Translations under genes and position numbers: made by a program
Part shown: positions 2,707 through 27,406 of the stretch, piece by piece
How the letters are laid out: each line of letters begins with the position of its first letter
Position numbering within the stretch: position 1 is the stretch's first letter
IMG/VR virus record: IMGVR_UViG_2671180568_000001
Strand: one strand, 5' to 3'
Length of the DNA stretch: 34,764 nucleotides
Origin: a virus
Taxonomy: Duplodnaviria; Heunggongvirae; Uroviricota; Caudoviricetes
The notes under the pieces: model-generated
The model's input: only the letters and a program-made list of their open reading frames with translations
Told to the model about the DNA's origin: nothing
The model's database searches: none

Positions 2707-5136
2707 TTAGTCATGCATCATGCTTGCGCGGGCTTTGGCGCGCTTCTCGCGCTCATACTTTTCTAATGCATCCTGCAAATCATTACCCAACCGATCTCCC
2801 GGCATACCATTGCCCGGCACGGTGATTTGATAGATTGGCCGACTCTGGTCGATGTAGGTTTTACCGGCGGGTGCCGTGACCGGCTGATAGCTGTTGTATG
2901 CGCTGATTGCCGGGCTGTAACCGTTCTGCGTCGCTGCATTGGCTTTCGCCGCTGTCTGGTCAAGTGAGCTGGATTCTTTGTTGATAATGCCGAGTTTTTC
3001 GAGCACCCAGTCAATCCCGCTTCGCAGCTTGTTAAAGGCGTTAAGCGGCATCAGCAGCGCATCGGCCAGCGTCTGACCGAACATAACCCCAACATCACGA
3101 CAACTGTTGAGCGTGTCCTGAGTCGCTTTCACCGGCGCTATCAGGTCTTTAAACCACTGCCAGACGCCGCGAAGTTTTTCGCCGAGACCGTCGAAAATGG
3201 GTGCCAGCGGGGCGAACATTTCCCCGACCGGCGCAAAGGCACTCATGAGCCCCTCGACCACACCGGCAAAGAATGCGCTGACAGGCTCCCAGTATTTACG
3301 GATAAGCAGCGCGCCAGCGACAACAGCCGCCGCTACCGCCACGACAGGCCACGTAATAGCACCAATAGCCGCAATGACCCCGCCACTGATTGTCGTAAAG
3401 ACCGCACCAAGCGCACCAGCCGCCGAAATGATGGCGTTAATGCCAGTAATTACCGGCCACGATACAAGGCCAATGGCACCAATCATCCCCACAATACCGA
3501 CAGCTGCCGCCGTAATGACACCCAGCGTGGTGGCAAGAGATTTGTTCTTTTGGATCCAGCTATCGAGCCTCAATACATACCCTGTCGTCGTTTGTACCAG
3601 CTTTCTTAATGATGACTCTTGCTGGTCAAACAGGTCGGTTCCTACCGCTTCATACGCAGACTGAAACTCTTTAAAATCGCCGCCGAGGTTATCCTGCATG
3701 ACCTTCACCAGCTCAGCGGTTTTGCCATCCGATGCTTTAAGGGAAGCGGTAAGCTGGTCTAATTTCCCGCTCGAGGCAGCGGTCATGAGTACCGCAGCCG
3801 ACGAGCTGGCCTCTTCACCGAAAATGGTTTTCATATATTCGGCACGCTGGCCGGTGCCGAGGTTGTTTTTATCAAAACTCCGCTGCATTTCTTTCAGGAT
3901 GGTAAATATTGGACGTGTGTTCCCCTTACCATCAGCCGTTTTGACGCCGAGCTCTTTAATGGCGTCATACGCTTTGCCCGTTGGAGCCTGCAGGCGACTT
4001 AATACGGCACGGCTCCCCGTACCCGCCATCGATCCCGTAATTTTGGCGTCATGCAGTGCGCCGACCATTGCGGCTGTTTCTTCGATGCTGACCCCGGCAT
4101 TTTTCGCCACCGGCGCGGCATAAGTCAGCGCATCACTCAGGCCGTCAAAGTCGGCGGCGGTTTTGTTCATCGTCATCGACAGAACATCACCGATATGGGC
4201 GACCTTATCGTTTGAAAGCTGGAAGGCAGAGCGCATCCCCATCAATAACCCGGCGTTCTCTTCCATCGTTCGACGGTTTGCGAGCGCCATATCGAGTGTT
4301 ACGGGGGTAGCGGCCTGAATAGCCGCAGCATCGCCGCCAGCCTTTGCAATAATAATCTGAGCACCGGCAGCATCATCAGCCGACGCGGCGGTGTTGTCAC
4401 CGAGCTGGCGCGCCTGTTTGCGGAGCGCCACCATATCAGCTGAGTCTTTACCGACACCGAGAACGGCCTGTAACTCAGAGTTTTTCTGAGCAAAATCATA
4501 ACCGGGCTTCATCAGTGCAACACCGGCAAGCGCTCCGGTCGTTGCCATGCCTATCCCGGCAGCGCCCATCGATGCCGCATTTCCAGCCAGTGCCTTTCCT
4601 GCCTGATAGCGTTTTTGTACTGCGCTGAGTTTTGCCTGTTGCGCGCTGACCCGCGCCAGTGCTTCATGCTGGCGGTTAAGTTGTGCGGTAGTTTCATTGA
4701 TAGAGTTTTTCAGGCGGCTTTCATCATTCGACAGATTGCGCGTATTAATCCCCGCTTTGCCGAGCTCGGTCTGTTGCCGCTTCACCGATTGGGTGAGGCT
4801 GTTATATTTTGCCTGTAACCCTTCAGCCGAACGCTTTGCTGATTCCAGCACTCTGGCCTGTGCCGCCGTTGGCCGTTCCGTGTTTTTAAACTGCACCGCC
4901 AGCTCGGCGGCTTCCTGTTTTGCCTTTTCCAGTGCCTGTCCGGTTACCGCCAGTTGTGCGCTGGTTTTGCGAAAACCGTCGATTTTCGATGCCTGACCAT
5001 TCAAATCACGCAGGGATTGCTGAGTCGTGCGGATATCGCCAGACAGCGATTTGCTCGCCGTCTGGATCGCTTTAAAGGGTCGGGTCGCCTGGTCGACAGC
5101 TTTCAGCAGCACTTCGAGTTTGAGGTTATTACTCAT
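2707..5136 (-). CDS. T: tail tape measure protein T
   Basis: 809-aa Ala/Gly/Gln-rich protein with coiled-coil N-terminus and hydrophobic Gly-rich segments, downstream of E/E'. Confidence 0.9.
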   Translation of the reverse strand: MSNNLKLEVLLKAVDQATRPFKAIQTASKSLSGDIRTTQQSLRDLNGQASKIDGFRKTSAQLAVTGQALEKAKQEAAELAVQFKNTERPTAAQARVLESAKRSAEGLQAKYNSLTQSVKRQQTELGKAGINTRNLSNDESRLKNSINETTAQLNRQHEALARVSAQQAKLSAVQKRYQAGKALAGNAASMGAAGIGMATTGALAGVALMKPGYDFAQKNSELQAVLGVGKDSADMVALRKQARQLGDNTAASADDAAGAQIIIAKAGGDAAAIQAATPVTLDMALANRRTMEENAGLLMGMRSAFQLSNDKVAHIGDVLSMTMNKTAADFDGLSDALTYAAPVAKNAGVSIEETAAMVGALHDAKITGSMAGTGSRAVLSRLQAPTGKAYDAIKELGVKTADGKGNTRPIFTILKEMQRSFDKNNLGTGQRAEYMKTIFGEEASSSAAVLMTAASSGKLDQLTASLKASDGKTAELVKVMQDNLGGDFKEFQSAYEAVGTDLFDQQESSLRKLVQTTTGYVLRLDSWIQKNKSLATTLGVITAAAVGIVGMIGAIGLVSWPVITGINAIISAAGALGAVFTTISGGVIAAIGAITWPVVAVAAAVVAGALLIRKYWEPVSAFFAGVVEGLMSAFAPVGEMFAPLAPIFDGLGEKLRGVWQWFKDLIAPVKATQDTLNSCRDVGVMFGQTLADALLMPLNAFNKLRSGIDWVLEKLGIINKESSSLDQTAAKANAATQNGYSPAISAYNSYQPVTAPAGKTYIDQSRPIYQITVPGNGMPGDRLGNDLQDALEKYEREKRAKARASMMHD

Positions 5137-5562
5137 TCGTGTTTCCGCTTCGCTGTAGCGCTTTTTCGCGCCAGTTGACGAGTTCGGTCAGGCTCATGGG
5201 ATACAGGTCTGATGGCGACCAGTGGAAAATTACCGCTATGTCAGCCATCAGGTCATCGACCGAGAGTTTTTGCGGGAAGGTTACGCCGCCTAACTCGGTG
5301 ACAAAAAACCGACCACCTTACCGGCAAACGACAGCAGGTCGGGCAGCTCCAGTGCGGCGGCTTCCTGCTCGGTCAGCGACGGCATGGTCATGCGCGGCAG
5401 CACTTTAATCAGCGCATCGACGTCAGAGTTTGCGACAGATGCCAGGCTGACACCGCGAAGGGTTCCGGCACACGGTTTTAACAGGGTGACGTCGGTAATA
5501 ACCTGCTCACCGCGCTTAATGGGTTTAATCAGAGTGACGATATTTTCGTTAGTTTTATCCAT
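5129..5562 (-). CDS. tail assembly chaperone E+E' made by programmed -1 frameshift at T_TTT_TTG (minus strand, plus coordinates 5302-5308)
   Basis: Heptamer is in zero-frame register GGT-TTT-TTG; the -1 frame hand-translated stays open to TAA at 5129-5131, overlapping the T start as in P2. Confidence 0.7.
5290..5562 (-). CDS. E: tail assembly chaperone E
   Basis: 90-aa ORF ending ...AGKVVGFLSPS upstream of T; carries the slippery heptamer near its 3' end. Confidence 0.85.
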   Translation of the reverse strand: MDKTNENIVTLIKPIKRGEQVITDVTLLKPCAGTLRGVSLASVANSDVDALIKVLPRMTMPSLTEQEAAALELPDLLSFAGKVVGFLSPS

Positions 5563-5624
5563 GATATTTCTCGTTAAATTCTGGTTTCAGGATGCCCGGC
5601 CAGCCATGCTGACCGGGGCATAAA

Positions 5625-6143
5625 TTACAGGCCGATATTTTGTCGGTGCGCCTCGAGCATGTCGGTGCCGTTCACTTTTTCGATGAGGTTCACGGTGTCG
5701 ATTTCCACCAGTTCCGAGCCATTCATCGTCAGCTTGAAATAGGTACACGCGAGAGCGATTTTCGACTCGGTGTCTTCGCCCTGTTTGGCTTCACCGAGGT
5801 CGATTTCTTTCTGACGGCCACGGAGAACAACCTCAACCGGCACGGTCTCGCCGGTGTCATCACGCTGGTAAGACCCGGCAAAACGTAGCGGTACGGAGGC
5901 CGCGCCGGTGGCAGCGTATAACGACCAGATAGCGTCATCGGGGAAGCCGCCGAGAGAGATTTCAGCCGACAGCGCATCGTCATCGAGGCCGAGGTCGACC
6001 GGTGCCGAACCATTCATCCCGCCGCCGCGATAGTTCTCGAGCTTGCGGGTTAATTTCGGCAGCGTGACGGACTGCACGACGCCGAGATAACTCACCCCAT
6101 CGATAAACAGGTTCATGAGTTTGAGCTTGCGCGGTAATGCCAT
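5625..6143 (-). CDS. FII: tail tube protein FII
   Basis: 172-aa ORF after FI, P2 gpFII-like. Confidence 0.9.
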   Translation of the reverse strand: MALPRKLKLMNLFIDGVSYLGVVQSVTLPKLTRKLENYRGGGMNGSAPVDLGLDDDALSAEISLGGFPDDAIWSLYAATGAASVPLRFAGSYQRDDTGETVPVEVVLRGRQKEIDLGEAKQGEDTESKIALACTYFKLTMNGSELVEIDTVNLIEKVNGTDMLEAHRQNIGL

Positions 6144-6155
6144 TTGTCAGGCTCC

Positions 6156-7343
6156 TTATTTGCTGTTGACGGACGAGATAAGATTCGCCAGATATTTATC
6201 AGTAATGCGCTGGCGTAAGGTCAGGTGTTCGAGTGGCGGCACCGGCGTATAGTCATAATCGATAAACAGTTTCCCGGCTTTCAGGGTTTCTTTACTGTTG
6301 GCCTCTTCGTCAAACCAGCACGTCGCATCGATGATGTAACCGCCGGTTTTCAGCTCGCGGAATTTCGCGTTGATGCCGTCGATAATGTCGCGAATCAACG
6401 TCGCGGTGATGGGCTTATCGTTCGCCCACATATGCCCCTCGGCTATTGTGTCGGCTATGACCTGTGCGGTGCGGGTGTAGTTCTCAAACTGAAACAGCGG
6501 GTCATCGGAGCAATTACGGTTACCCCAGAAGCGGAAACCATCGGCACGAATCAGCGTCGTAACACCGGCCTCATTCAGCAGGTCGGCATCAGTGCCAGAT
6601 TCCTGCAAATCCCAGAAGACCGACGCACTGATACCGGTGACGCCATTGATGCCGACGTTTGACAGGGTTTTATGCCAGCCTGTGTCATTGTCGATTTTTG
6701 CGCGCAGTCCCAACGCGATCGCTGTTGCATAACTGGTTGTGGTCGCGTTGGCCGTGGTATCCCACCCGAGGAAGTCAGGCCAGATAATCATGAGCTCACG
6801 GGCGCTGAAGTTTTCGCGGTAGGCGATAACGTCAGCAATGGTTTTACAGCCCCACGCGCTGACATAGGCGAAAGCGCGCAGCTTCTGAGCCACGGAGACA
6901 AGCGCGGTCGCCACCTCCTGAGTATCGAGCCCCGGCACACCGAGAATACGTGGCTTCACGCCGGTGACCGCTTTCGCCGTTAACAGCGCTTTCATCCCGG
7001 TATATTTGCCATTCTCATCCGTGGTGCCGATGATGTTAGAAATGGTTTGCGCCTGTGCCTCTTCGCCGTCGCCGGTACCCTCCGCGACACGCACAACAAC
7101 GACAACCGGTTTTGACTGGTTAGCGATGAGCTGTAAGGATTTTGCCAGGGTACCTTTAGTACCGGCTTTTGCGATGGCGCTTTGTGGGTTGGTAATCAGC
7201 ACCGGCTCATTGAGAGGGAAAGCCCCGGCGTCAGCATCACTGGCTGTGCAGACCATGCCAACGACCGCCGTTGATACCGTCGAGATTGTGCGGGTGCCGT
7301 CGTTAATTTCGACGACCTCGACACCGTGATGATAATCACTCAT
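6156..7343 (-). CDS. FI: contractile tail sheath protein FI
   Basis: 395-aa ORF starting MSDYHHGVEVVEINDGTRTIST, P2 gpFI-like. Confidence 0.92.
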   Translation of the reverse strand: MSDYHHGVEVVEINDGTRTISTVSTAVVGMVCTASDADAGAFPLNEPVLITNPQSAIAKAGTKGTLAKSLQLIANQSKPVVVVVRVAEGTGDGEEAQAQTISNIIGTTDENGKYTGMKALLTAKAVTGVKPRILGVPGLDTQEVATALVSVAQKLRAFAYVSAWGCKTIADVIAYRENFSARELMIIWPDFLGWDTTANATTTSYATAIALGLRAKIDNDTGWHKTLSNVGINGVTGISASVFWDLQESGTDADLLNEAGVTTLIRADGFRFWGNRNCSDDPLFQFENYTRTAQVIADTIAEGHMWANDKPITATLIRDIIDGINAKFRELKTGGYIIDATCWFDEEANSKETLKAGKLFIDYDYTPVPPLEHLTLRQRITDKYLANLISSVNSK

Positions 7344-7407
7344 CCGTTTAACTCCGTTAGTTGAGGTGAGTGATATTGTCTGGTTTACGCCTGTATGCGG
7401 CTATTTG

Positions 7408-7986
7408 TCAGGGTTCGCCGGTGGCTGACACAACGGGATTTGTCGCCGGAAATTTTTTATACAGCGTCGATATGCCCACATCAAAAATCAGTGCAACACG
7501 CTGTCGGGATTCTCCGGCCGCAATCAACCGGCCAGCCTGAGCCCATTCATCAGGCGTCAGCTTCGGCCTACGACCTCCGATCCTGCCTTGTGCCCGGGCT
7601 GCATCCAGCCCGGCGCGGGTTCGTTCGACGATTAACTCGCGTTCCATTTCTGCAAGAGCGCCCATGATGTGAAAGAAAAATCGCCCCATCGGGGTTGAGG
7701 TATCAATACTGTCGGTCAGGCTTCTGAAATTAACCCCTCGCTGGCGAAGCTCTTCAGTCATAGAGACAAGATGGCGCATGCTACGCCCGAGCCTGTCGAG
7801 CTTCCAGACAACGAGAGTATCACCGGCATTAAGTTGCCTGAGTGCGCGATTTAACCCTGGCCTGTTTGTCGATTTACCGCTGATTTTATCCTCGAAAATT
7901 AGCTCACATCCCGACCGTTCCAGCGCGTCACGCTGTAGCGCGGTATTTTGTTCATTTGTTGATACGCGCACATAGCCAACCTGCAT
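7408..7986 (-). CDS. serine recombinase, Hin/Gin/Cin/Pin-type DNA invertase
   Basis: N-terminus [13 protein letters not shown]... with catalytic-Ser context and a C-terminal HTH; GAGGG RBS before ATG at 7986 (ORF track uses an upstream TTG). Sits next to a hix-like site. Confidence 0.88.
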
Positions 7987-8040
7987 TTGTTTTCCCTCAT
8001 GCAAAAGCCCAAATGATGCCAGCTAGGGGGGAAAACTACA

Positions 8041-8066
8041 TTTTCTTAAACGTTGGTTTAGGAGAA
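8041..8066. other. hix/gix-like 26-bp crossover site (invertase-proximal): TTTTCTTAAACG-TT-GGTTTAGGAGAA
   Basis: Imperfect dyad of 12-bp half-sites around a central TT; the palindrome-arm identity begins exactly at the central dinucleotide (8053). Confidence 0.6.
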
Positions 8067-8405
8067 GCGGCTAAAAGGAATGTAGGGACAGGGGCAAATC
8101 AGATACCTGATATGGGTAGCTTCACGCTTTCTGTTTCAGGTACTGGATATCAAAAATTACCATCAGGTTTTATTCTTCAGTGGGGCTCAATCGGCGCACC
8201 AGGCATTGCACAGGATGTAGTAACCCATTTCCCGATTGCATTTCCAAACAGATGTCTGCGTGTTTTGGTCTCACAAGACTACACACCAGATAGCGGGGCT
8301 GTTGGTTATATTGCCTGTGCAGGTTTTAGTCCCGACCCGGTTAAATTTATATCCAGAGCCAGTACTCCTGGCCTCGGCGCTTCATTTTTAGCGTTAGGCT
8401 GTTAA
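8053..8405 (+). CDS. tail-fibre variable C-terminal cassette Hv1, promoterless mirror copy
   Basis: Encodes the same residues as the C-terminus of H (...[16 protein letters not shown]...LALGC); begins at the crossover site with no start codon of its own. Confidence 0.5.
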
Positions 8406-8426
8406 TTTAGCTATATGGAGTGAAAA

Positions 8427-8867
8427 ATGAATTACATATATTCCGTGACTACAAACTCTTTCTATCCGCTGGAGATGAAAGAGGATTACACTCAAGCTGA
8501 CTCATGGCCAGATGATGCTGTTGAAGTTGATGAGCAAGCGTATATTGAGTTTTCCGGATTACCGCCGAAAGGAAAAATCCGTATCGCTGGAGAAAATGGT
8601 TTTCCTGCATGGTCTGAAATTCCACCACCAACACATGAGGAACAGATTGCTGCAGCCGAACTGGAAAAGCAGCAACTGATTAATCAGGCCAACGATTATA
8701 TGAACAGTAAACAATGGCCTGGTAAAGCGGCTATTGGTCGCCTGAAAGGTGAGGAACTGGCGCAATATAATTTGTGGCTGGATTATCTGGACGCACTGGA
8801 ACTGGTCGATACCTCCAGTGCTCCAGATATTGAATGGCCTACGCCTCCGGCAGTTCAGGCCAGATGA
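8427..8867 (+). CDS. tail fibre assembly protein Tfa1, mirror copy
   Basis: 146-aa ORF identical in translation to 10936..11376. Confidence 0.55.
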   Translation: MNYIYSVTTNSFYPLEMKEDYTQADSWPDDAVEVDEQAYIEFSGLPPKGKIRIAGENGFPAWSEIPPPTHEEQIAAAELEKQQLINQANDYMNSKQWPGKAAIGRLKGEELAQYNLWLDYLDALELVDTSSAPDIEWPTPPAVQAR

Positions 8868-9441
8868 CATCCGGCGCGGTGCTGGTATCTGTTGCCGTCA
8901 CCGCGTCAATGTAATCCAGCACGGCGTTAAGTCGGGTTGTTTCTGCCTGCGTCAACTTCCGTCCGGCCTGTAATTTCAGCTGAATCAGACTAATGGAAGC
9001 CATTGCTGCATCAATCAGTGACTGGCGCTGTGCTTCTGCCGCGTCTACTGCGGCACTATGCTGTGCCTCAGTATCCGTCACCCATTTCTCACCATCCCAT
9101 TTATCATATGGCGTTAACGGGGCGATAGTGGTTGTATTTTCAGGGTAATCACCCGGAGCTGTGATTTCTTTCGATTCTCCTGTTTCGGTGCTATAGATGA
9201 TTTCACCGCGATGGTCTGGCACATATTCCCATGAGTTAAAATCTGCAGAACGGCAGATTGCATAACCAGCTTTATGTGTAACTGGTGCATCTAAACAAGA
9301 ACATGCCGGGATACCGACGCCAACCGCAAGATATTCAGTTGATGTGGAAATATATTCCCGCGTTTCACCATCATAATTATAAATGGTAATGTCTCCCGCT
9401 TTTATGGCAATGAGTTCGTTATTTAATACGGCTTTATTCAT
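8839..9441 (-). CDS. tail fibre assembly protein Tfa2, mirror copy
   Basis: 200-aa ORF identical in translation to 10362..10964. Confidence 0.55.
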   Translation of the reverse strand: MNKAVLNNELIAIKAGDITIYNYDGETREYISTSTEYLAVGVGIPACSCLDAPVTHKAGYAICRSADFNSWEYVPDHRGEIIYSTETGESKEITAPGDYPENTTTIAPLTPYDKWDGEKWVTDTEAQHSAAVDAAEAQRQSLIDAAMASISLIQLKLQAGRKLTQAETTRLNAVLDYIDAVTATDTSTAPDVIWPELPEA

Positions 9442-9891
9442 CAGGCAGCCCTCACGATATAATTAAAGGCAATGTTACGAGGTCGGTTTTCGTTTGCAGT
9501 TGGAACAACTCTGGAAGCATCGAATGTTACTCGCTTTGCATAACCACCTTTAATTGAATCAGATGAAGCATCTCCGATGACGCTGGTTGTAAAAACGCCA
9601 GAATCAGAAGGGTAGGTATTAAACCTGACATCCACTAATGCACCAATTATATTTCGAATGGCATCTCCCTGTGACGAAAGCAAGCTACGGTTAGTATCTA
9701 TTCCTCTTCCGTCATCCCAGCCACGAATGAACTCACCACGTAAATCAGGCAATTTATTTGTCGGGTAAGCCTTTGCCAGTTCCGGGTATTCTTCAGCAGA
9801 AAAAGCCGCACCGTTGCATTTCAGCCAGCCTGTTGGCGGAGTGGCGGAAGGCCACGGAACAGGCACACCAACGGGTAATGCCGAACCTTCT
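9441..9891 (-). CDS. alternative tail-fibre C-terminal cassette Hv2, mirror copy, running into the N gap
   Basis: Same protein as 9902..10362; ends ...RNIAFNYIVRAA. Confidence 0.45.
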
Positions 9892-9901
9892 NNNNNNNNN
9901 N
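9892..9901. other. run of 10 N (assembly gap) beside the palindrome axis
   Basis: Literal N characters; the mirror positions 9902-9911 read ttggtttggg. Confidence 0.99.
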
Positions 9902-10362
9902 TTGGTTTGGGAGAAGGTTCGGCATTACCCGTTGGTGTGCCTGTTCCGTGGCCTTCCGCCACTCCGCCAACAGGCTGGCTGAAATGCAACGGTGCGGCTT
10001 TTTCTGCTGAAGAATACCCGGAACTGGCAAAGGCTTACCCGACAAATAAATTGCCTGATTTACGTGGTGAGTTCATTCGTGGCTGGGATGACGGAAGAGG
10101 AATAGATACTAACCGTAGCTTGCTTTCGTCACAGGGAGATGCCATTCGAAATATAATTGGTGCATTAGTGGATGTCAGGTTTAATACCTACCCTTCTGAT
10201 TCTGGCGTTTTTACAACCAGCGTCATCGGAGATGCTTCATCTGATTCAATTAAAGGTGGTTATGCAAAGCGAGTAACATTCGATGCTTCCAGAGTTGTTC
10301 CAACTGCAAACGAAAACCGACCTCGTAACATTGCCTTTAATTATATCGTGAGGGCTGCCTGA
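9902..10362 (+). CDS. alternative tail-fibre C-terminal cassette Hv2 (receptor-binding tip, promoterless)
   Basis: Begins with the crossover-site peptide GLGE; the C-terminal NIAFNYIVRAA matches the conserved end of P2/Mu-type fibre tips as recalled. Confidence 0.55.
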
Positions 10363-10964
10363 TGAATAAAGCCGTATTAAATAACGAACTCATTGCCATA
10401 AAAGCGGGAGACATTACCATTTATAATTATGATGGTGAAACGCGGGAATATATTTCCACATCAACTGAATATCTTGCGGTTGGCGTCGGTATCCCGGCAT
10501 GTTCTTGTTTAGATGCACCAGTTACACATAAAGCTGGTTATGCAATCTGCCGTTCTGCAGATTTTAACTCATGGGAATATGTGCCAGACCATCGCGGTGA
10601 AATCATCTATAGCACCGAAACAGGAGAATCGAAAGAAATCACAGCTCCGGGTGATTACCCTGAAAATACAACCACTATCGCCCCGTTAACGCCATATGAT
10701 AAATGGGATGGTGAGAAATGGGTGACGGATACTGAGGCACAGCATAGTGCCGCAGTAGACGCGGCAGAAGCACAGCGCCAGTCACTGATTGATGCAGCAA
10801 TGGCTTCCATTAGTCTGATTCAGCTGAAATTACAGGCCGGACGGAAGTTGACGCAGGCAGAAACAACCCGACTTAACGCCGTGCTGGATTACATTGACGC
10901 GGTGACGGCAACAGATACCAGCACCGCGCCGGATGTCATCTGGCCTGAACTGCCGGAGGCGTAG
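10362..10964 (+). CDS. tail fibre assembly protein Tfa2, cognate chaperone of Hv2
   Basis: 200-aa ORF overlapping the Hv2 stop (ATGA); C-terminal ...APDVIWPELPEA typical of Tfa/gpG-like chaperones. Confidence 0.7.
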   Translation: MNKAVLNNELIAIKAGDITIYNYDGETREYISTSTEYLAVGVGIPACSCLDAPVTHKAGYAICRSADFNSWEYVPDHRGEIIYSTETGESKEITAPGDYPENTTTIAPLTPYDKWDGEKWVTDTEAQHSAAVDAAEAQRQSLIDAAMASISLIQLKLQAGRKLTQAETTRLNAVLDYIDAVTATDTSTAPDVIWPELPEA

Positions 10965-11376
10965 GCCATTCAATATCTGGAGCACTGGAGGTATCGACCA
11001 GTTCCAGTGCGTCCAGATAATCCAGCCACAAATTATATTGCGCCAGTTCCTCACCTTTCAGGCGACCAATAGCCGCTTTACCAGGCCATTGTTTACTGTT
11101 CATATAATCGTTGGCCTGATTAATCAGTTGCTGCTTTTCCAGTTCGGCTGCAGCAATCTGTTCCTCATGTGTTGGTGGTGGAATTTCAGACCATGCAGGA
11201 AAACCATTTTCTCCAGCGATACGGATTTTTCCTTTCGGCGGTAATCCGGAAAACTCAATATACGCTTGCTCATCAACTTCAACAGCATCATCTGGCCATG
11301 AGTCAGCTTGAGTGTAATCCTCTTTCATCTCCAGCGGATAGAAAGAGTTTGTAGTCACGGAATATATGTAATTCAT
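10936..11376 (-). CDS. tail fibre assembly protein Tfa1 (gpG-like), cognate chaperone of the expressed fibre
   Basis: 146-aa ORF directly downstream of H; C-terminal ...APDIEWPTPPAVQAR. Confidence 0.8.
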   Translation of the reverse strand: MNYIYSVTTNSFYPLEMKEDYTQADSWPDDAVEVDEQAYIEFSGLPPKGKIRIAGENGFPAWSEIPPPTHEEQIAAAELEKQQLINQANDYMNSKQWPGKAAIGRLKGEELAQYNLWLDYLDALELVDTSSAPDIEWPTPPAVQAR

Positions 11377-11397
11377 TTTTCACTCCATATAGCTAAA

Positions 11398-12357
11398 TTA
11401 ACAGCCTAACGCTAAAAATGAAGCGCCGAGGCCAGGAGTACTGGCTCTGGATATAAATTTAACCGGGTCGGGACTAAAACCTGCACAGGCAATATAACCA
11501 ACAGCCCCGCTATCTGGTGTGTAGTCTTGTGAGACCAAAACACGCAGACATCTGTTTGGAAATGCAATCGGGAAATGGGTTACTACATCCTGTGCAATGC
11601 CTGGTGCGCCGATTGAGCCCCACTGAAGAATAAAACCTGATGGTAATTTTTGATATCCAGTACCTGAAACAGAAAGCGTGAAGCTACCCATATCAGGTAT
11701 CTGATTTGCCCCTGTCCCTACATTCCTTTTAGCCGCTTCTCCTAAACCAAGGTTTTTGAGAACCTCAGCAACCAATCCGGCGTCGGCCATTTCTTTTAGT
11801 GCGTTCGCAATCAGCGGGTATTGCTTATGCGGGTTAGCCTTTGCCTCATGATCTTTCATGAGTTTGTCGGCGTAGCTCTTCACCTCGATGACTGCATCGT
11901 CGACATATTTACGGGTTGCCAGCACGACTGACGGGTCGATTTTTAAGGTGATCGCCGAAGTGCTCGAGACAACGAGAATCATGCGAATGGTCTGCGTTCG
12001 GCCGCTCCCCTCAGCCAGTAACGGTTTATAGGTTTCCGGGCAGTTGGCGACAGCAATCAGGATACCTTCATCATCGTAAAGACCGATTTCGCGGATAAAG
12101 AAACCGCCCTCGTTTTCCGGGATGATCTGCTCGGCAATAATCTGACCGGTGTCGTTAGCATCTACTGCCAGTGAATTTAGCAGCTCGCGGCGACGCTCGT
12201 TAATGAGCTTTGTCTGAGCCGGGTCAGGTGTCGGCAGTGTGCCGTTTCCGTCCCCGACGGCCATTTGTGTAATATTCAGTTTAGTACCGAGTGCGGTCGC
12301 GTTTGCCAGTCGCGCCGCGCCCTGATGGGTCAGAATGGCAAAATATTTAGTCGTCAT
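11398..12357 (-). CDS. H: tail fibre protein H (constant N-terminal part fused to cassette Hv1)
   Basis: 319-aa ORF with P2 gpH-like N-terminus ([22 protein letters not shown]...MAVGDGNG); its C-terminus is duplicated at 8053..8405. Confidence 0.85.
11737..11762. other. hix/gix-like 26-bp crossover site inside H (minus strand TTCTCAAAAACC-TT-GGTTTAGGAGAA)
   Basis: Dyad half-sites; encodes [10 protein letters not shown] at the constant/variable junction of H; the palindrome arm ends at its central dinucleotide (11750). Confidence 0.6.
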
Positions 12358-12965
12358 GCGCTTACTCGCAGGTTATCAATCAGATGAATGGCCGAAGCCG
12401 GACAAAACTCACCACCGACGACAATCTCCCCGGAGGCATAGGGATATACGGTTAACAGGTCGCCGTCGTAGCAGCTTGCGCCCACATAAGCGCGCCCGGT
12501 GGTGCTCAGGCTGATAGCGAGCCCGGTCAGGTGTCGGCTTGCCGGTTTTGCCCCTTCAATAAGGCGCTCGAGCTCGAGATACATCTCATCGGTGATGCCG
12601 GTCTCGAGTACGCCAACCACAAGCCGGAAAGTTCCCGGCTCTTCGTTGAGCTCCCACCACTCTTTAACCTCAATCAGATAGCCCAGCGGCTCCACCACGC
12701 GCCGTAATGCGGCGATGGTGCCTTTGTGGGCATGAACATAAAATGCGGAGGCGATAACGCTGCGTTTTGTGGCCTCCGGCCATCTCTCATCCCACCGGTC
12801 AACCGAAAATGCCCACGCCAGATACGGCAGCAGCCGCACCGGGCAAGTGCGCCAGTTCCACAACGTGCGAAGCGGTACCGGCACACGCTCAATATCTGCG
12901 GCCGCGCGGGCGGCGGCGACCTCGAGCAGCGATGAGCCAACAGGCAACAGTCGCTTATTACTCAT
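12354..12965 (-). CDS. I: baseplate assembly protein I
   Basis: Start chosen at [26 protein letters not shown] (ATG at 12965, overlapping the J stop); the ORF-track 244-aa form is an N-terminal extension. Confidence 0.85.
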
Positions 12966-13866
12966 CGGCCCCCCCGTCAGCGATGTGGTATTCGGTGCAA
13001 CAGGATGCCTGGTATTTACTGAGCACAATGTCAGCCAGTGGCGCGGCGAGTTCGACACGCTGCACACCTTCGACATGCAGGGCGGCATAGATGGCCGACT
13101 GACGAATGTCCCGGCCCAGTCGCTGTTGTGCGCTGATGTATGCCTTCAGTTTTTCCTCTGCGGCCTGACGGATTGGCTCGGCCTCCGGCCCCGGATAAAA
13201 ATACAGAGTTGCATCAATCTGATACGGCACGATTTCAGCACTCTGCACCGTCACCCTGTCGCCAACCGGGCGCACCTCTTCAGCATTTAGTGCTTTTTCA
13301 ACGATGGTCAGAAGCTCATCGGATGCGGTGCCGTCATCCTCGCGTGACAGCACGGTGATGGTCACACAGGCCGGTGACGGGCTGACAACCGAGATATCAG
13401 CGACCCGACCGTCGGCGCTGCGACCGTGGTATTCATATGCGCCGACCGGACCAGCCACGCTGAGCCCTTCATAAGCCTGTTGTGCGCGTAACCGTAAATC
13501 GGTATCAGATTCCATGACGGCGGGTGTCGGCGGGATAGTGCTGTCATCGGCGGGCGTCACAATCTGTCGCGCGGTGTTGTTGTTTCCGGCCATCACATCA
13601 AGGTCGTTATTACTCGCATAAGCCAGTGTGCAGCCTTTCGCCGCATCGTTTACACGCTGACGCCAGATAACCTCCCGATAGGCGTTTTCCTCCAGATACT
13701 TCACCAGTGGCTCAGACTCAAGGGCGAGAGTACGCGCAACAGCGTCCTGTTGTTCTTCAGGGTAAAGCGAGACCAGCGTCGCTTTGCGTTCCGCGAGAAT
13801 AGTCTCAAAATCCAGCGTTTCCACGACGTCAGGCGCGGGGAGCTGGCTCAGGTCGATGTTTGCCAT
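12958..13866 (-). CDS. J: baseplate assembly protein J
   Basis: 302-aa ORF MANIDLSQLPAPDVVETLDFETILAERKA..., P2 gpJ-like. Confidence 0.9.
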   Translation of the reverse strand: MANIDLSQLPAPDVVETLDFETILAERKATLVSLYPEEQQDAVARTLALESEPLVKYLEENAYREVIWRQRVNDAAKGCTLAYASNNDLDVMAGNNNTARQIVTPADDSTIPPTPAVMESDTDLRLRAQQAYEGLSVAGPVGAYEYHGRSADGRVADISVVSPSPACVTITVLSREDDGTASDELLTIVEKALNAEEVRPVGDRVTVQSAEIVPYQIDATLYFYPGPEAEPIRQAAEEKLKAYISAQQRLGRDIRQSAIYAALHVEGVQRVELAAPLADIVLSKYQASCCTEYHIADGGADE

Positions 13867-13870
13867 AAAT

Positions 13871-14218
13871 TCAACTCACAGGAATAGTCAGTGACAGGGT
13901 TTTGCCGGTGTCCCGGGTCTCGCCGGTCAGCTCAACAATCATCTGACCGTTAAACTGACGTTCTACCGTCAGCGAGCTGATGCTGATGCGCGGCTCCCAC
14001 TTCAGCAGCGCCATATAACAGGCGCACATAATTTGCAGTCTCAGCGCGTCGGTCTGCGGCATATCAATCAGGGAGAACAACAGCGAGCCATAATCGCGAC
14101 GCATCACGCGAGAGCCGACCGGCGTTCGCAAAATATCGCCACAGCTCTGACGGATGTGATCGGCGTCAGTGATGGCGCGCCCGGTCTCCCTGTTCATACC
14201 GATATAACGGGTCGTCAT
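13871..14218 (-). CDS. W: baseplate protein W (gp25-like)
   Basis: 115-aa ORF between V and J. Confidence 0.9.
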   Translation of the reverse strand: MTTRYIGMNRETGRAITDADHIRQSCGDILRTPVGSRVMRRDYGSLLFSLIDMPQTDALRLQIMCACYMALLKWEPRISISSLTVERQFNGQMIVELTGETRDTGKTLSLTIPVS

Positions 14219-14856
14219 TTCGTGCCCTCCGTCCAGGCTCCACCTCTTTGCACACCGCCGTGACCGTGGCTGTCGACCTGAACGCCGTTGGATTTAAACG
14301 TACCGTCGGTGTGTTCGATGTTTCCGCGCATGGTGCCGCCTTGTTGTACCTCAAGCGTCGCCGTCGTCAGTTTGTTGGTGCAGACCACTTCCGGTGTATC
14401 GAGGGTGATGCGGGTCTCGGCTTTCACCGTCACCAGCGGTACCGTCGCGGTGATGGAATCCGACGCCGTAACGTCTGCGGTTTTAATGCCGCTCACGGTC
14501 AGCGCGCCGGTCTCCGGCTCGTACTCGATAACAGCCCCATCAGGAAAGGTGATGTGAAAAGCATCAGCCGACGCCGACGGCGCGGGGTGGTCATCCGAAA
14601 AAATGCCGGGCAGCACAAAAGCGGTGTCGAGTTCACCACCCACGGCCAGCAGTAAAACCTGCTCGCCCACAGACGGAGCCCACCAGACACGTGAACGACC
14701 GGCGCGTGTGGTCAGCCACTGAAGCCAGTCGGTAACAATGCCGCCAGTCTGGACGCGACAGCGCCCGTCATCGAGGTCAACTTCGACGACGACGCCGGTA
14801 CGTATCAGGTTGCGAAGGAGGCGTAAAGCGTCCTGAAGAGTTGCGCGAGTATTCAT
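14215..14856 (-). CDS. V: baseplate spike/assembly protein V
   Basis: Start chosen at MNTRATLQDALRLLRNL (ATG at 14856); the upstream extension in the ORF track is rejected. Confidence 0.85.
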   Translation of the reverse strand: MNTRATLQDALRLLRNLIRTGVVVEVDLDDGRCRVQTGGIVTDWLQWLTTRAGRSRVWWAPSVGEQVLLLAVGGELDTAFVLPGIFSDDHPAPSASADAFHITFPDGAVIEYEPETGALTVSGIKTADVTASDSITATVPLVTVKAETRITLDTPEVVCTNKLTTATLEVQQGGTMRGNIEHTDGTFKSNGVQVDSHGHGGVQRGGAWTEGTK

Positions 14857-14932
14857 ACAAGGAAGGATGCCGCCCGGTGCTCTGGACGGCAATTAATGCG
14901 GGTTTTACCAGATATGGCACAACATACAAAAA

Positions 14933-16276
14933 CTAGCTTGGGGTAACTGTAACCTGACGAGAAAAAACAACAGGCTCCTTCAATTGCTCACATATAATTT
15001 TAAAATTAATAACTCCAGAGCCAATCGTTAAGGGAATGATGACTATTTCCTCATACTCAACAGTTAAGCTCTGTAACACTTTTTTCGCACGCAACGTGAT
15101 TTTATGGTCCTCTTTCATGACCCACTCATCTTGGTTAACTGTTCCTAAATCAGCCATCCGTTTAATTATTGCTGGCACTTCGAAATGAGGTTTAGCCATT
15201 ACCATCGATGTATCATCAAAAATACCCATCCTAAAATTTTCGAGTGACATTATAGCACTGAGTCTTTTTTTATGCTTACTTATTGGGGACTCAGGGATTT
15301 TTAATTTCGGCTCTTTTATAAATAAGTCTTCATTAGAACCTTTAAGCACTATTAGGAATTCAGGAAAATCAATCTCAACATAAACATTTGACGCAAAAGT
15401 CCTCCCATTATTTCTTAAAACGGGCTTCACTGTAATTGCATTGTTTTTGTAATTACAGTGCAATCTCATTTTTTTATTATATAAATCCACATCTTTATCA
15501 GTAGGCAGTGAAGAGTTATATGATTCAATCTCATCAATGGTGATAGTGTCCTTCAACTCAAGAGGTACCGCTTCCTTGCATAGTTGTGGAAGGTAATCCT
15601 GATAAGTCGACTCCACATCCACCGTCAAAGCTAAGTCATTATCAATCATGCTCAGCTCTAATTGAGGTGCATCGCTATGTAATTGGCTTTCATATTCGCG
15701 GACTTTTTCCCTTAATTTTCTATTTTCATTAGATAGCTCAGCCAACTCGGCGGTAATCTCTTTAGATGCGACCTGGTCACCGCGCACCCATCCTATTCGT
15801 GGATTTCGTCGCATTACTTTTGGTAAGGCGATAGCAACCTTCGTCGCTAACTCATCAATTGTCTCCCAAAAATCACACATTTTGTTAGCTTTAGCTTTTT
15901 CAATAAAAGCATTTAGTTGCTTTTCTTTTTGAGGGTCACTTTCTCGTTCATGTGGTTTTGTTAAAACGTCCCTCCCTCTAATAAAAGCCAACACCGGTAT
16001 ATTTAATGATTTAGCATAGTTATATTCCATTTCAGTATAGCTAATACCATCTTTAGAAACGGACCCATACTTATGCCCAATGATAATCACATAATAATCA
16101 CTAGCATCAATAGTCTCCTTTATTATATCCCACTGCTCAGAGTCATCAGCGCTAAACATCTCCATGCCAACTGGAAAGTGGTATAAACTAAGGACCGTTT
16201 CTATGATTTTTTTGCGAGCATCAATTAAATCGACGTATGTAGAGCTCACAAATACTTGATATTTTTTATTTTCCAT
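14933..16276 (-). CDS. cargo protein with DUF4062-like N-terminal domain and uncharacterised C-terminal region; candidate single-gene defence factor
   Basis: AT-rich 447-aa ORF between S and V; N-terminal motifs YQVFVSSTYVDL..ARKK, HFPVGMEMF, YYVIIIGHKYGS as recalled for DUF4062; AGGA RBS before ATG at 16276. Confidence 0.75.
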   Translation of the reverse strand: MENKKYQVFVSSTYVDLIDARKKIIETVLSLYHFPVGMEMFSADDSEQWDIIKETIDASDYYVIIIGHKYGSVSKDGISYTEMEYNYAKSLNIPVLAFIRGRDVLTKPHERESDPQKEKQLNAFIEKAKANKMCDFWETIDELATKVAIALPKVMRRNPRIGWVRGDQVASKEITAELAELSNENRKLREKVREYESQLHSDAPQLELSMIDNDLALTVDVESTYQDYLPQLCKEAVPLELKDTITIDEIESYNSSLPTDKDVDLYNKKMRLHCNYKNNAITVKPVLRNNGRTFASNVYVEIDFPEFLIVLKGSNEDLFIKEPKLKIPESPISKHKKRLSAIMSLENFRMGIFDDTSMVMAKPHFEVPAIIKRMADLGTVNQDEWVMKEDHKITLRAKKVLQSLTVEYEEIVIIPLTIGSGVINFKIICEQLKEPVVFSRQVTVTPS

Positions 16277-16313
16277 AACATCCTCACTTGTATAGAAAAT
16301 AAAATACATAAAA

Positions 16314-16781
16314 TCAATCAATAGATCTAGCCGCCTCAGCTAAAGAAACCATAATTATGTCATGAATCATATTTTTTGATTCATGATCAAACCCGATAAG
16401 CATTCGGGCGTCATACTGTACCGGCGCACTGTTTCGCCCAGGCTTATCTTTGAGACCGTACTGATGCACATTCGCCATCCGTTGTACCTTGCCGGTAAAT
16501 TCCACGACCGCCGAGTCATTCCCCGCTGTGGCTTTCATAAAGCGACTGGTGCGGAGCTTAGCGAACATTTCCCGCTTAACCCGGCCTGTTTTGGCTTTTA
16601 CCGGCTGGCGTTTTCGGGCGGCGTAAGGTGTCCCGTCCGGGGCTTTCTGCATTTTAATCCGGCGCTGTTGACGGGCTCGCAGGGTCTTAGCGATATCTGC
16701 GGCCATTCTGCGACGGGCGGCAGGAGACAGCGCTGCTATCAGCCCCGTGAGCGTATCGTCAAAGGGTTTAAAGTCATTCAT
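16314..16781 (-). CDS. S: tail completion protein S
   Basis: 155-aa ORF downstream of R, P2 gpS-like. Confidence 0.85.
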   Translation of the reverse strand: MNDFKPFDDTLTGLIAALSPAARRRMAADIAKTLRARQQRRIKMQKAPDGTPYAARKRQPVKAKTGRVKREMFAKLRTSRFMKATAGNDSAVVEFTGKVQRMANVHQYGLKDKPGRNSAPVQYDARMLIGFDHESKNMIHDIIMVSLAEAARSID

Positions 16782-25145: not shown

Positions 25146-25832
25146 TTATTGCTTATCTTGTGGTGGTGGAACCTCTTTTTCTAAATTATCTACATACTCT
25201 CTAATATTGAATGCTTTGTTTTTCCTTATTTCGGTAGTGTTAACCTTACTAACACCATCACGAATGTTTTTATTTATGGTGTCTATTAATTTTTGTCTTT
25301 CTTGTTCTGTTTTTATTATTTCACTTAAGAATGACTTTGCGTTTCTTGAAATGTCCGTCTGTCTATTAATGAATAGTATCGCATACACTGAAAAAACCAA
25401 GCAAGTAGTCGTTAGTGCGGAATTAAAAAATACCCCATAATAAACATTAACTTTTGTTATTGACGCTGATAACGTTAGTGATATCAAAAAAAACAAAATC
25501 AGGGTAAAAATATATGCAATGGTTACTTTGTTTTTAGTGGTGTCAAGAATGTATGAAGTTCTTTGATCATCAAAGTAATCCTTTATCCTTGATGGAGTGT
25601 TTGCGGGGAGTTCTAACTCCTTTATTTTATCATCAGCATCAATTAGTCGCTTAAACATGAGGCTAATGATTACGGCGCTAAAGACAGAGATCCCCTTTGA
25701 AATTATAGGATCGAAATCAATTAAAAATGAGTATTTTGAATAAACAAAAACAATAACAAAACCACATATAAGCCCAATTACAATTGAGCTTGCTATGTTT
25801 TTTGCATATGTTTGTAACGTATTGTTTATCAT
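25146..25832 (-). CDS. cargo membrane protein (four predicted TM helices plus charged C-terminal tail); candidate effector of a two-gene module
   Basis: AT-rich 228-aa ORF with four hydrophobic ~20-aa segments; start ATG overlaps the upstream gene stop (ATGA). Confidence 0.7.
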   Translation of the reverse strand: MINNTLQTYAKNIASSIVIGLICGFVIVFVYSKYSFLIDFDPIISKGISVFSAVIISLMFKRLIDADDKIKELELPANTPSRIKDYFDDQRTSYILDTTKNKVTIAYIFTLILFFLISLTLSASITKVNVYYGVFFNSALTTTCLVFSVYAILFINRQTDISRNAKSFLSEIIKTEQERQKLIDTINKNIRDGVSKVNTTEIRKNKAFNIREYVDNLEKEVPPPQDKQ

Positions 25833-26812
25833 GGGTTAATTACTCCGGTGTCTAGTAAGCGCAATAACCATGAAATCATTTCTTCAGCAACGTTGTCAGC
25901 AATTAGCATTCCATTGCTGTATTCAATATTAACTGAATCCTTTAGTTGAATCTCATCATTCCTGAGTATTCCTGCACCTTTTAACTCAATTGTTAAGCTT
26001 TCATCTCTATTATCAACCAAGCCTTGTGTAATTTTACGCAACATGTCTTGCTCAGACTCGCTTGCTTTATATTTATACCCAATGGAAATATCAATTGATA
26101 GAGATTCCCTGTCAGGTGAACCATCATTTAAAATGGCATTTTTCTTCATTTCATTAATTCGATGTTCACCTACGAGCGTTTTTAATAGCTCACTAGCTGT
26201 ATCATCAATATTATTTCCATAGTAGGTTAAAGGCAGCTTTAAGCTAACATTTTTTACTATGTTACGTTTTAAAAAATCCGTATTTAGAGACAGGTTGTTT
26301 GCCTGTAAAACGATGAAGTTATCATCAGTAATAGATAGGTTGTCTTGTAGTATGAAATTTATATAATTTTCAATATCTTTTATTCTAATAGATCTGCTTT
26401 GCAGAATTATGAAGTGGTTCTTAATCACACCAATGTATGCAATGCTTTCTAAATACTCTCTAGCATTCCCACTTGATAAATTTAATGTCTCGTATGTTAA
26501 AGCTGTTTTAGCATAATCGCTAACAGAGAAAACAGGAATGCTACTACCCGGTTCAATATAGACAATTTCCGCAAAAAACATTCCATGAATTTCTTTGCTA
26601 TTTGAAAGAACCATGTGGGCGTGAGCAGCGACATTACCATTATTATCTGGAACATCAGGGAAGAATAATCTATCAGCAACATTTGGAACCTTGATTTTCA
26701 CAAGGTTTGCCAACCTATCTTGCAGGTTTGATGTTAAAAGAGCATCCTTTTTAGGAAGCATTATTGCATGGCGATAATGCAGCATTTTACTCTTATAATC
26801 TTGCGTTGCCAT
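25829..26812 (-). CDS. cargo soluble protein, uncharacterised; candidate sensor partner of the membrane protein
   Basis: AT-rich 327-aa ORF with no TM segments; AGAGGGA RBS before ATG at 26812; no motif recognised by eye. Confidence 0.7.
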   Translation of the reverse strand: MATQDYKSKMLHYRHAIMLPKKDALLTSNLQDRLANLVKIKVPNVADRLFFPDVPDNNGNVAAHAHMVLSNSKEIHGMFFAEIVYIEPGSSIPVFSVSDYAKTALTYETLNLSSGNAREYLESIAYIGVIKNHFIILQSRSIRIKDIENYINFILQDNLSITDDNFIVLQANNLSLNTDFLKRNIVKNVSLKLPLTYYGNNIDDTASELLKTLVGEHRINEMKKNAILNDGSPDRESLSIDISIGYKYKASESEQDMLRKITQGLVDNRDESLTIELKGAGILRNDEIQLKDSVNIEYSNGMLIADNVAEEMISWLLRLLDTGVINP

Positions 26813-27183: not shown

Positions 27184-27366
27184 CTATTCAGCCTTATAGA
27201 AAATTTCGTCTTTTTCTTCGTCGCTTTCGCTGTTAGCTAGGCCGGCAATCAGAGTTAGTGCCAGCTTCAAATCTGCCGGTTTGCAGTTGGCAATAAGAGA
27301 TATCTCGGCGATAAATTGCACACAAGCCCACTTTTGCTGCGTTCGGCTGAAATGTTTCCCAACCAT
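27184..27366 (-). CDS. small hypothetical protein directly downstream of a LexA box; occupies the position of the 186 SOS-inducible tum gene
   Basis: 60-aa ORF with GGGAGGG RBS; LexA box 20 nt upstream. Function not recognisable from sequence. Confidence 0.4.
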   Translation of the reverse strand: MVGKHFSRTQQKWACVQFIAEISLIANCKPADLKLALTLIAGLANSESDEEKDEIFYKAE

Positions 27367-27386
27367 GAAATCCCTCCCAATAGGAT

Positions 27387-27406
27387 TACTGTGTATTTAT
27401 ACAGTA
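27387..27406 (-). promoter_or_regulatory. LexA (SOS) box TACTGTGTATTTATACAGTA
   Basis: Perfect CTGT-N8-ACAG dyad with flanking TA/TA, immediately upstream of the 27366 start codon. Confidence 0.7.

Follow-up and report, generated by a model that had tools for sequence, protein, structure and literature searches.

The sequence analysed here (the window) is a 34,764-nucleotide stretch of Caudoviricetes DNA (IMG/VR record IMGVR_UViG_2671180568_000001) that represents a 186/P2-like prophage located next to rplS in E. coli. Between its tail genes S and V it carries a gene of the DUF4062/NIR family on the minus strand (14933..16276, including the stop codon), the 447-amino-acid product of which (WP_001366609.1) is probably a prophage-encoded, single-gene abortive-infection defence protein. 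The family assignment follows from the list of open reading frames (ORFs), the NCBI annotation of an identical locus, a match to Pfam family PF13271, and a match to PHROG 9489 over the full length of the protein. It was not until 2026 that DUF4062/NIR NADases became known as immune effectors, and the clade described here combines the effector and stalk of one such system, Swarozyc, with an unrelated and rapidly diversifying putative sensor domain.

Effector domain, stalk and C-terminal domain

PF13271 (DUF4062) matches residues 7-88 across the complete Pfam model (positions 1-82 of 82), with 99 bits against a cut-off of 24.7 (E=1.8e-28). An AlphaFold2 model of the 447-residue protein, built on an alignment of 81 full-length relatives, has a mean predicted local distance difference test (pLDDT) score of 90 and consists of an alpha/beta domain (residues 1-160, mostly with pLDDT >90), a long helix (residues 172-200), and a separate C-terminal domain. 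Foldseek matches of the N-terminal half include the plant TIR domains of RPS4/RRS1, SPARTA TIR-APAZ, and DNPH1, and on the basis of the model this half is predicted to have a TIR-like alpha/beta fold, with the effector domain (residues 1-160) encoded at 15797..16276 (minus strand).

The solved chain of the Swarozyc protein KpSwz (PDB 10wc/11cq/11cv) aligns without gaps to residues 3-209 at 40% identity (E=3.3e-46; phmmer and BLASTP), and alignment of the two family profiles with hhalign gives E=1.4e-70, with a match that extends through the stalk. Identity to KpSwz is 39% over residues 3-160 and 43% over residues 161-209, the latter covering a linker and long helical stalk (residues 166-205, with the helix at 172-200; 15662..15781, minus strand) that is supported by the modelled secondary structure, the stalk alignment, and the profile match. 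The predicted catalytic residue is E84, within the motif SYTEMEY (codon at 16025..16027, minus strand), which aligns with E97 of KpSwz; the deposited KpSwz chain is an E97A mutant and its alanine aligns with E84, and wild-type KpSwz (P0166) has glutamate at this position. E84, F9, W49, and other motif residues are invariant in the 81 full-length relatives, and Q48 and W163 are nearly so. F9, E84, and W163 correspond to F11, E87, and W162 of the staphylococcal protein Eva01, mutation of which abolishes defence (bioRxiv 10.64898/2026.06.25.731849), and the E84-Y85 pair corresponds to the E-Y motif of Eva01 (E87-Y88). By alignment, F9, Q48-W49, and W163 match residues shown to be necessary in Eva01 and KpSwz.

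DUF4062, now renamed NIR, is a TIR-like NADase domain that functions in anti-phage abortive infection (bioRxiv 10.64898/2026.05.01.722283, 10.64898/2026.06.25.731849, 10.64898/2026.09.04.749371). According to these three preprints, KpSwz, Eva01, PsAvs2, Vulcan, and Vesta all cause glutamate-dependent NAD+ depletion with abortive infection or growth arrest. KpSwz is activated by the portal protein of phage Bas14 and its only products in vitro are ADP-ribose and nicotinamide (bioRxiv 10.64898/2026.05.01.722283). A previous reading of the window from its letters alone (the sequence-only reading) had noted DUF4062 hallmarks near the N-terminus (YQVFVSSTYVDL at residues 6-17, HFPVGMEMF at 33-41, and YYVIIIGHKYGS at 61-72), had expected a match to PF13271, and had cited a proposal that the domain is TIR-related. 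The motifs are present, the full-model Pfam match confirms the expectation, and the TIR relationship is established by experiment for the family in the preprints and agrees here with the Foldseek TIR matches. Its coiled-coil-like stretch likewise reappears as the confidently modelled helix at residues 172-200, homologous to the KpSwz stalk.

Resemblance to KpSwz ends with the stalk: no significant similarity was found past approximately residue 210 by phmmer, BLASTP, or profile-profile alignment, and a Pfam scan of the C-terminal half returned no match. The remainder (residues 206-447; 14936..15661, minus strand) is modelled as an Ig/macroglobulin-like beta-sandwich with a helical insert, and is predicted to be an auxiliary, putatively sensory, domain that is distinct from the winged-helix portal sensor of KpSwz. 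Foldseek matched this domain only to generic beta-sandwich folds, as did the BFVD viral fold library, in which the matches were generic and of low TM score. A word-indexed homologue search with the C-terminal half recovered only one partial Pectobacterium protein, but an exhaustive HMMER search with the region recovered 200 representative clusters at E<=1e-3 and 80 at E<=1e-10 (clusters counted at 50% identity). Most of these relatives are 440-460 residues long and have the same DUF4062 N-terminus; elsewhere the domain is joined to divergent DUF4062-like domains and, in P0059, to a Schlafen/AlbA_2 domain. What the sequence-only reading left as some 250 residues of unassigned sequence is thus a defined and widespread beta-sandwich domain family, and its varied N-terminal partners indicate, at the level of sequence, that it behaves as a modular sensor or adaptor domain. 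The non-DUF4062 N-termini occur in P0059, P0143, P0089, P0134, and P0090, and apart from the Schlafen/AlbA_2 domain of P0059 they comprise several unassigned domains; such fusions suggest further effector-swapped systems built on the same sensor domain.

Comparison with the characterised systems places the protein near Swarozyc and within Evangelion in its broad sense. Like KpSwz, it is the product of a single gene, is collinear with KpSwz to approximately residue 210, and shares with it both the glutamate (E84 and E97) and the core-stalk tryptophan (W163 and W176). However, KpSwz has 325 residues, the last ~115 of which form an auxiliary (AUX) module, of the helix-turn-helix (HTH)/winged-helix type, that binds the Bas14 portal and includes a W238/Y239 hairpin (bioRxiv 10.64898/2026.05.01.722283), whereas the protein described here has 447 residues and a predicted beta-sandwich of ~240 (242) residues; the AUX fold was compared with this domain through its description in the preprint. 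The homology of effector and stalk that characterises Swarozyc is thus present and the C-terminal HTH/winged-helix AUX is not. The five Swarozyc homologues tested in the preprint share similar AUX domains (bioRxiv 10.64898/2026.05.01.722283), and the proteins of Klebsiella, Salmonella, and Yersinia closest to KpSwz are 325-326 residues long, from which the tested set would appear to be of the short type. The two genes also differ in setting, as KpSwz is located in a chromosomal defence island and the gene described here in a slot of a P2-like prophage.

Evangelion consists of a DUF4062 core and an auxiliary region (bioRxiv 10.64898/2026.06.25.731849), and its broad definition fits the present protein, which has the F9/F11 aromatic residue, the acidic-SYT E-Y motif (E84-Y85/E87-Y88), the Q/W/E motif, and the tryptophan at the junction of core and AUX (W163/W162), followed by a distinct C-terminal domain. 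Both are carried by mobile elements, and the slot described here holds no partner gene. Eva01 itself (S. aureus pMW2) differs in being carried by a plasmid in Gram-positive bacteria, in having a short AUX (truncation at L177 abolishes function), and in responding to phage recombination and replication functions; the present protein has a long AUX and is prophage-borne. Vulcan, Vesta, and NIR-Avs2 belong to the same effector class, with glutamate-dependent NAD+ depletion and growth arrest at high multiplicity of infection, but are built differently. Vulcan has C-terminal HEAT repeats, whereas the C-terminal domain here is predicted to be mostly beta and is without a HEAT match in Pfam; in Vesta a small NIR protein is encoded together with an alkaline phosphatase, whereas the neighbours here are gpS and gpV only; and Avs2 has a STAND NTPase and a TPR sensor, whereas Pfam and NCBIfam scans found no NTPase domain in the protein described here, which has only 447 residues.

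Cargo slot, distribution and allelic variation

The gene is an uninterrupted ORF that lies on the same strand as its neighbours, with the genes for gpR and gpS upstream and those for gpV and gpW downstream. The upstream flank is gpS, for tail completion/virion morphogenesis (16314..16781, minus strand; PF05069, E=6.6e-34), and the downstream flank is gpV, the baseplate spike and first gene of the V operon (14215..14856, minus strand, with the start at 14856 according to NCBI; PF04717, PF18715, and PF18946, comprising Phage_base_V and Phage_spike). The G+C content of the DUF4062 gene is 37%, compared with 56% in the adjoining part of S, 60% in V, and 51% in the entire window, and by base composition the gene is foreign. 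The ATG start codon at 16276 is preceded by a Shine-Dalgarno sequence, GAGGA, at 16285-16281. An alternative TTG start at 16321 would yield a 462-residue protein; the NCBI annotation uses the 447-residue form, which it names 'DUF4062 domain-containing protein'.

In P2, S and V are separated by orf30, a non-essential gene on the opposite strand that is flanked, in the annotation, by the terminator of the O operon and the activator-binding site of P_V. A conserved P_V late-promoter control element, GTTGTG-N10-TAAAAC (14902..14923, minus strand), is located directly 3' of the DUF4062 stop codon. Its ATGTTGT motif begins 69 nt ahead of the V ATG, exactly as does the annotated P_V activator site of P2, and the form GTTGTG-N10-(T/C)AAAAC is common to the window, a relative with an empty junction (L004), and a distant P2-like contig (L092). 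Since the P_V element is placed as in P2, the DUF4062 gene is located at the boundary of two late operons, in the position of orf30, rather than within an operon. The sequence-only reading was correct that an AT-rich ORF of 447 residues separates S and V, as the ORF listing, the G+C content, and the flanking Pfam matches all indicate, but its statement that these genes adjoin in P2 overlooked orf30, and the slot that it considered unusual and internal to the late tail operon is instead the O/V operon boundary, with the P_V element retained.

Close relatives of the prophage, with R and S approximately 95% identical, vary at this junction. In L004 it is empty (68 nt); in L003 (2838-3923) it is filled by a 361-residue hypothetical protein, encoded on the opposite strand and without a Pfam match; and in L005 (1802-3860) it holds a DUF4238 protein and an 8xMP/RipA-family membrane protein. 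A DUF4238 protein from a P2 hotspot has been shown experimentally to protect against T7 (PMC9122126), and recent surveys name positions 'within the tail genes', besides the gpA-gpQ and Z/fun hotspots, as sites of defence cargo in P2 (PMC13586616). Because the contents differ among relatives, DUF4238 is defensive, and cargo in tail genes has been reported, the S-V junction is best regarded as an exchangeable cargo site that is able to hold defence genes, and it can now be documented as a defence-cargo slot of P2-like phages beside the gpA-gpQ and Z/fun hotspots. The comparison of junctions that the sequence-only reading had proposed thus yields one empty and two differently occupied sites. It also eliminates the option that the protein is a universal component of P2-like tails, as the gene is absent from P2, L003, L004, and L005 and the S-DUF4062-V order occurs in only 15 of 5426 complete E. 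coli genomes. The DUF4062 gene shares with other P2 hotspot cargo (orf30; old/tin at gpA-gpQ; Z/fun at G-FI) its AT-richness, dispensability, and horizontal acquisition, and shares with orf30 its position between gene S and the P_V activator site. In contrast to the DUF4062 gene, which is co-oriented with the late genes and whose cassette replaces the last ~20 codons of S, orf30 is on the opposite strand, has no Pfam match, and is unrelated in sequence.

Relative to L004, similarity ends approximately 60 nt ahead of the S stop codon and returns just past the DUF4062 stop codon, which defines an AT-rich cargo cassette of ~1456 bp and 36% G+C (14924..16379, minus strand) that supplies the last ~60 nt (~20 codons) of S. 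A repeat search found no direct repeats flanking the cassette, and a transposon or integron-like insertion was therefore rejected; exchange through S and V is favoured instead, which points to homologous recombination within these two genes between P2-like phages. In one strain (CP068802.1; L091:4148-4924), an IS1 element is inserted in the cassette-derived 3' end of S, which is cut to 151 residues, with a 9-bp duplication, GACATAATT. The corresponding 826-nt gap in L091 had been considered as an alternative upstream region and was rejected on recognition of the IS1 insertion.

The S-to-V stretch of the window is identical to that in E. coli chromosomes such as those of FORC 064 and PCN033. 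The exact 447-residue protein is encoded on 571 contigs, clustering at 90% groups it with proteins of E. coli and Salmonella (277 members), and in every retrieved context of the exact protein the gene is between S and V. Full-length homologues are encoded by 40 IMG/VR contigs, and none was found in records of isolated phages. The order R-S-[DUF4062]-V-W is found in all 21 IMG/VR contigs with at least 44% identity (44-100%; R and S 52-100% identical), except L120, and a metagenomic homologue with 56% identity (P0017) is likewise located between S and V. Homologues with 33-40% identity occupy other temperate-phage cargo sites, namely the Z/fun-type tail-fibre/sheath slot of P2-like phages, positions near CI, CII, Ogr, and integrase genes, and lambda-like contigs. 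The homologues of L115, L116, and L120 (40-59% identity) are in the Z/fun position, past the Tail_P2_I/fibre genes and ahead of the sheath and tube genes, and that of L120 is seemingly split into two ORFs of 226 and 231 residues. In cellular genomes, the full architecture is present in Vibrionaceae, Pasteurellaceae, Moraxellaceae, Geobacteraceae, Bacillota, Bacteroidota, Planctomycetota, and Synergistota, and the 139 neighbours at 18 cellular loci include Gabija GajA, type I restriction-modification, SoFic, OLD/AriA-like, and PDC candidate proteins. The clade is common among the P2-like prophages of both E. coli and Salmonella, and its members come from many phyla.

Variation within the family is concentrated in the C-terminal domain. 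Relative to the protein described here, mean identity falls from 57% for the TIR-like domain through 38% for the stalk to 23% for the C-terminal domain. Among Salmonella-type alleles that are ~96% identical to it, 17-18 of the 18-20 substitutions are in the C-terminal domain, and for one allele pair the count is 18 of 19 (binomial P=1.5e-4). The ratio of nonsynonymous to synonymous substitution rates (dN/dS), calculated by the Nei-Gojobori method against three ~96%-identical alleles, is 0.02 for residues 1-205 and 0.29-0.36 for residues 206-447. The most variable segment comprises residues 341-380 (15137..15256, minus strand), in which both the conservation within the family (0.15 per column) and the pLDDT of the model (44-53) are lowest. 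Substitutions relative to the ~96% alleles cluster at residues 352-374, and 7-9 of 16-18 are within residues 341-380; dN/dS for this segment is 1.3-2.7, which with just 7-9 replacement changes is a hint. The segment is a candidate specificity determinant, and the sequence comparisons indicate that the effector is conserved while the putative sensor domain diverges.

This divergence is also evident among prophages that are otherwise nearly the same. The backbones of L108, L110, and L111 are near-identical to that of the window (R 90-97%, V 92-97%, and W 97-99%), and yet their DUF4062 allele, which still shows 87-88% identity in the TIR-like domain, drops to 31-36% in the C-terminal domain. Sensor alleles that are exchanged and diversify within the S-V slot of P2-like phages are the best explanation. 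Such a natural allele series, with the same effector and different sensors in near-identical backbones, could be used to map sensor specificity and the stalk-coupled switching of a TIR-like enzyme.

Expression and proposed function

The sequence-only reading had proposed a single-gene defence or abortive-infection moron. That proposal is sound given the KpSwz-like effector and stalk and the accessory distribution, with the activity itself assigned by homology; its placement of the gene in an unusual position within an operon is the part that did not stand. By analogy with the characterised systems, we infer NADase activity, abortive infection, autoinhibition, a sensing role for the C-terminal domain, and expression in the lysogen. 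In an uninfected lysogen, the protein would be kept inactive as stalk-mediated, autoinhibited oligomers, as in KpSwz. Upon infection by a competing phage, the C-terminal beta-sandwich would bind a product of that phage, with a structural protein that forms multimers as the most plausible candidate, and the binding would rearrange or cluster the stalks so that the TIR-like active site opens. E84-dependent hydrolysis of NAD+ would then abort the infection. The few triggers so far reported for DUF4062/NIR systems are portal, terminase, lambdap79, the A1 nuclease pathway, and recombination functions (2026 preprints). Because the sensor fold differs from the portal-binding AUX of KpSwz, the trigger here is more probably something other than the portal.

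Several observations weigh against a defensive role. Not every DUF4062 protein scores as defensive, as the Eva02 lineage gave no protection in tests (bioRxiv 10.64898/2026.06.25.731849), and no assay of the 447-residue architecture was found in the literature searched, a comparison made without the sequences of Eva02-04 and EcDUF4062 (UPI0002A39D72). Scans of the protein with PADLOC 2023 and NCBIfam gave no meaningful match, although the PADLOC models are older than the description of the family, and annotation tools built on 2023 models overlook the protein altogether. At some cellular loci, the homologues have no defence neighbours and are inserted as single genes in housekeeping surroundings. 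The C-terminal fold has only generic matches, which point to no particular trigger. Furthermore, defence would require expression in the lysogen, and a strict consensus scan from S to the DUF4062 gene found no sigma-70 promoter, and only a weak terminator-like hairpin inside S. With the S stop codon 37 nt from the DUF4062 ATG, no consensus promoter, and only this weak hairpin, co-transcription with the late O operon is likely and may account for most of the gene's transcription.

Nevertheless, there is a candidate promoter of its own that the strict scan did not call. It comprises a -35 element, TAGATC (16329-16324), a 17-nt spacer, and a -10 element, TATTTT (16306-16301), followed by the Shine-Dalgarno sequence (the whole at 16281..16329, minus strand), and it spans the S stop codon (16316-16314). 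The position is conserved in alleles: upstream of the gene, 14 diverged alleles have at constant positions a T(A/G)GA(C/T)N hexamer followed, across a spacer of 17-18 nt, by TATTTT, and a Shine-Dalgarno sequence of the form GAGG, and the cassette may thus carry a weak promoter. In the same region, a repeat search and folding energies identified an inverted repeat (16256..16312, minus strand; arms 16256-16277 and 16291-16312) that could form an RNA hairpin (minimum free energy -14.2 kcal/mol, z=-3.0), in which the leader pairs with the AUG and the first seven codons and the Shine-Dalgarno sequence is in the loop. Counterparts are present in L108, L110, and L102; in other alleles a U-rich leader pairs with the Shine-Dalgarno sequence, and in three alleles nothing comparable was found. 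RNAalifold gave no consensus structure for the leader hairpin across alleles and Rfam gave no match. The significance of the hairpin is uncertain, and it is speculative that it forms only on read-through late transcripts. A fuller scheme, which we regard as unlikely, would combine these features: the beta-sandwich would be a new class of sensor for TIR-like NADases that recognises a non-portal phage component, the weak promoter would provide a translatable mRNA in the lysogen, the hairpin would hide the start codon on read-through late transcripts and spare the prophage's own lytic cycle, and the S-V slot would be a dedicated and long-standing locus for the exchange of sensor alleles.

Alternative explanations concern either the trigger and output of the protein or its beneficiary. 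It is quite unlikely that the protein is an ordinary Swarozyc that behaves just like KpSwz, with a C-terminal domain that, though differently folded, senses phage portals. Effector and stalk are of a type clearly orthologous to those of KpSwz, portals are recurrent triggers of defence systems (bioRxiv 10.64898/2026.05.01.722283), and multivalent, ring-shaped triggers fit an enzyme activated by oligomerisation; however, sequence and profile similarity cease past approximately residue 210, a ~115-residue HTH/winged-helix AUX is replaced here by a predicted beta-sandwich of twice that length (~240 residues), and the five tested homologues share similar AUX domains, with those of Klebsiella, Salmonella, and Yersinia at ~326 residues. 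Also to be considered is an output of the TIR-like domain other than bulk NAD+ depletion, such as a signalling nucleotide, or hydrolysis of nucleosides or nucleotides as by relatives of the NDT/CMP-hydrolase/DNPH1 type. DUF4062 is positioned between the TIR and nucleoside 2-deoxyribosyltransferase superfamilies (2026 preprints), DNPH1 is among the Foldseek matches, and metabolomics of Eva01 revealed wider changes in adenine-containing metabolites (bioRxiv 10.64898/2026.06.25.731849). Yet KpSwz, the closest characterised relative at 40% identity, forms no products in vitro but ADP-ribose and nicotinamide, NAD+ is likewise depleted by PsAvs2, Vulcan, Vesta, and TEP1, and the slot holds no partner effector gene, which together make a different output very unlikely.

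Abortive infection on behalf of the lysogen is also preferred to a role in the prophage's own lytic cycle, in which the protein would be late-expressed or virion-associated and would, for instance, manipulate host metabolism or exclude satellites during assembly. The gene begins 37 nt past S and shares its strand, with no terminator or consensus promoter detected between them, so that late co-transcription is likely, and Ig-like beta-sandwiches are common on phage structural proteins. Such a role is nonetheless highly improbable, as the gene is missing from most related prophages (with an intact and empty junction in one), is foreign by base composition, and is homologous to a validated host-protective system, and as homologues are frequent at non-phage chromosomal loci and in other cargo hotspots (the tail-fibre/sheath slot and lysogeny modules). 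Least probable is that the gene does nothing at present and is carried along in silent or decaying form, in a prophage that may itself be defective. The replication gene A has an in-frame stop codon, H-NS could silence an AT-rich island, and the strict scan found no consensus promoter; on the other hand, the ORF is intact and identical on 571 contigs, every motif residue is kept, and dN/dS against the 96% alleles (0.02) shows strong purifying selection on the effector half.

Other features of the prophage

The stop codon in the replication endonuclease gene A (about 27267-29703, minus strand) is in frame, and the annotation of the identical locus in FORC 064 treats the gene as a pseudogene; given this stop codon, the prophage may have a replication defect. 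Between the portal gene Q and gene A, an interval that is the canonical old/tin defence hotspot of P2, an island of 30-33% G+C holds two overlapping ORFs (25146-25832 and 25829-26812, both minus strand) of 228 and 327 residues. Neither has a Pfam or PADLOC match, and the pair is a candidate for an uncharacterised two-gene defence system.

Additional ORFs are located at both prophage edges. At one edge, in a stretch of ~37% G+C, a 309-residue ORF (33150-34079, plus strand) shares 11 nt with the 3' end of the integrase gene; it has no match in Pfam and a negligible match in PADLOC. The position between integrase and att is a minor defence hotspot of P2 (PMC13586616). At the opposite edge, beside a small ogr-like regulator gene, a 240-residue hypothetical ORF (1-723, plus strand) has 40-45% G+C and no Pfam or PADLOC match. 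Finally, in the region of tail-fibre, tail-fibre-assembly, and invertase genes (about 5136-14800), the window is ~1.85 kb longer than FORC 064 (L001). In relatives, the fibre genes are inverted or alternatively arranged beside a recombinase-family gene, and these arrangements suggest a host-range switch of the Gin/Cin type.

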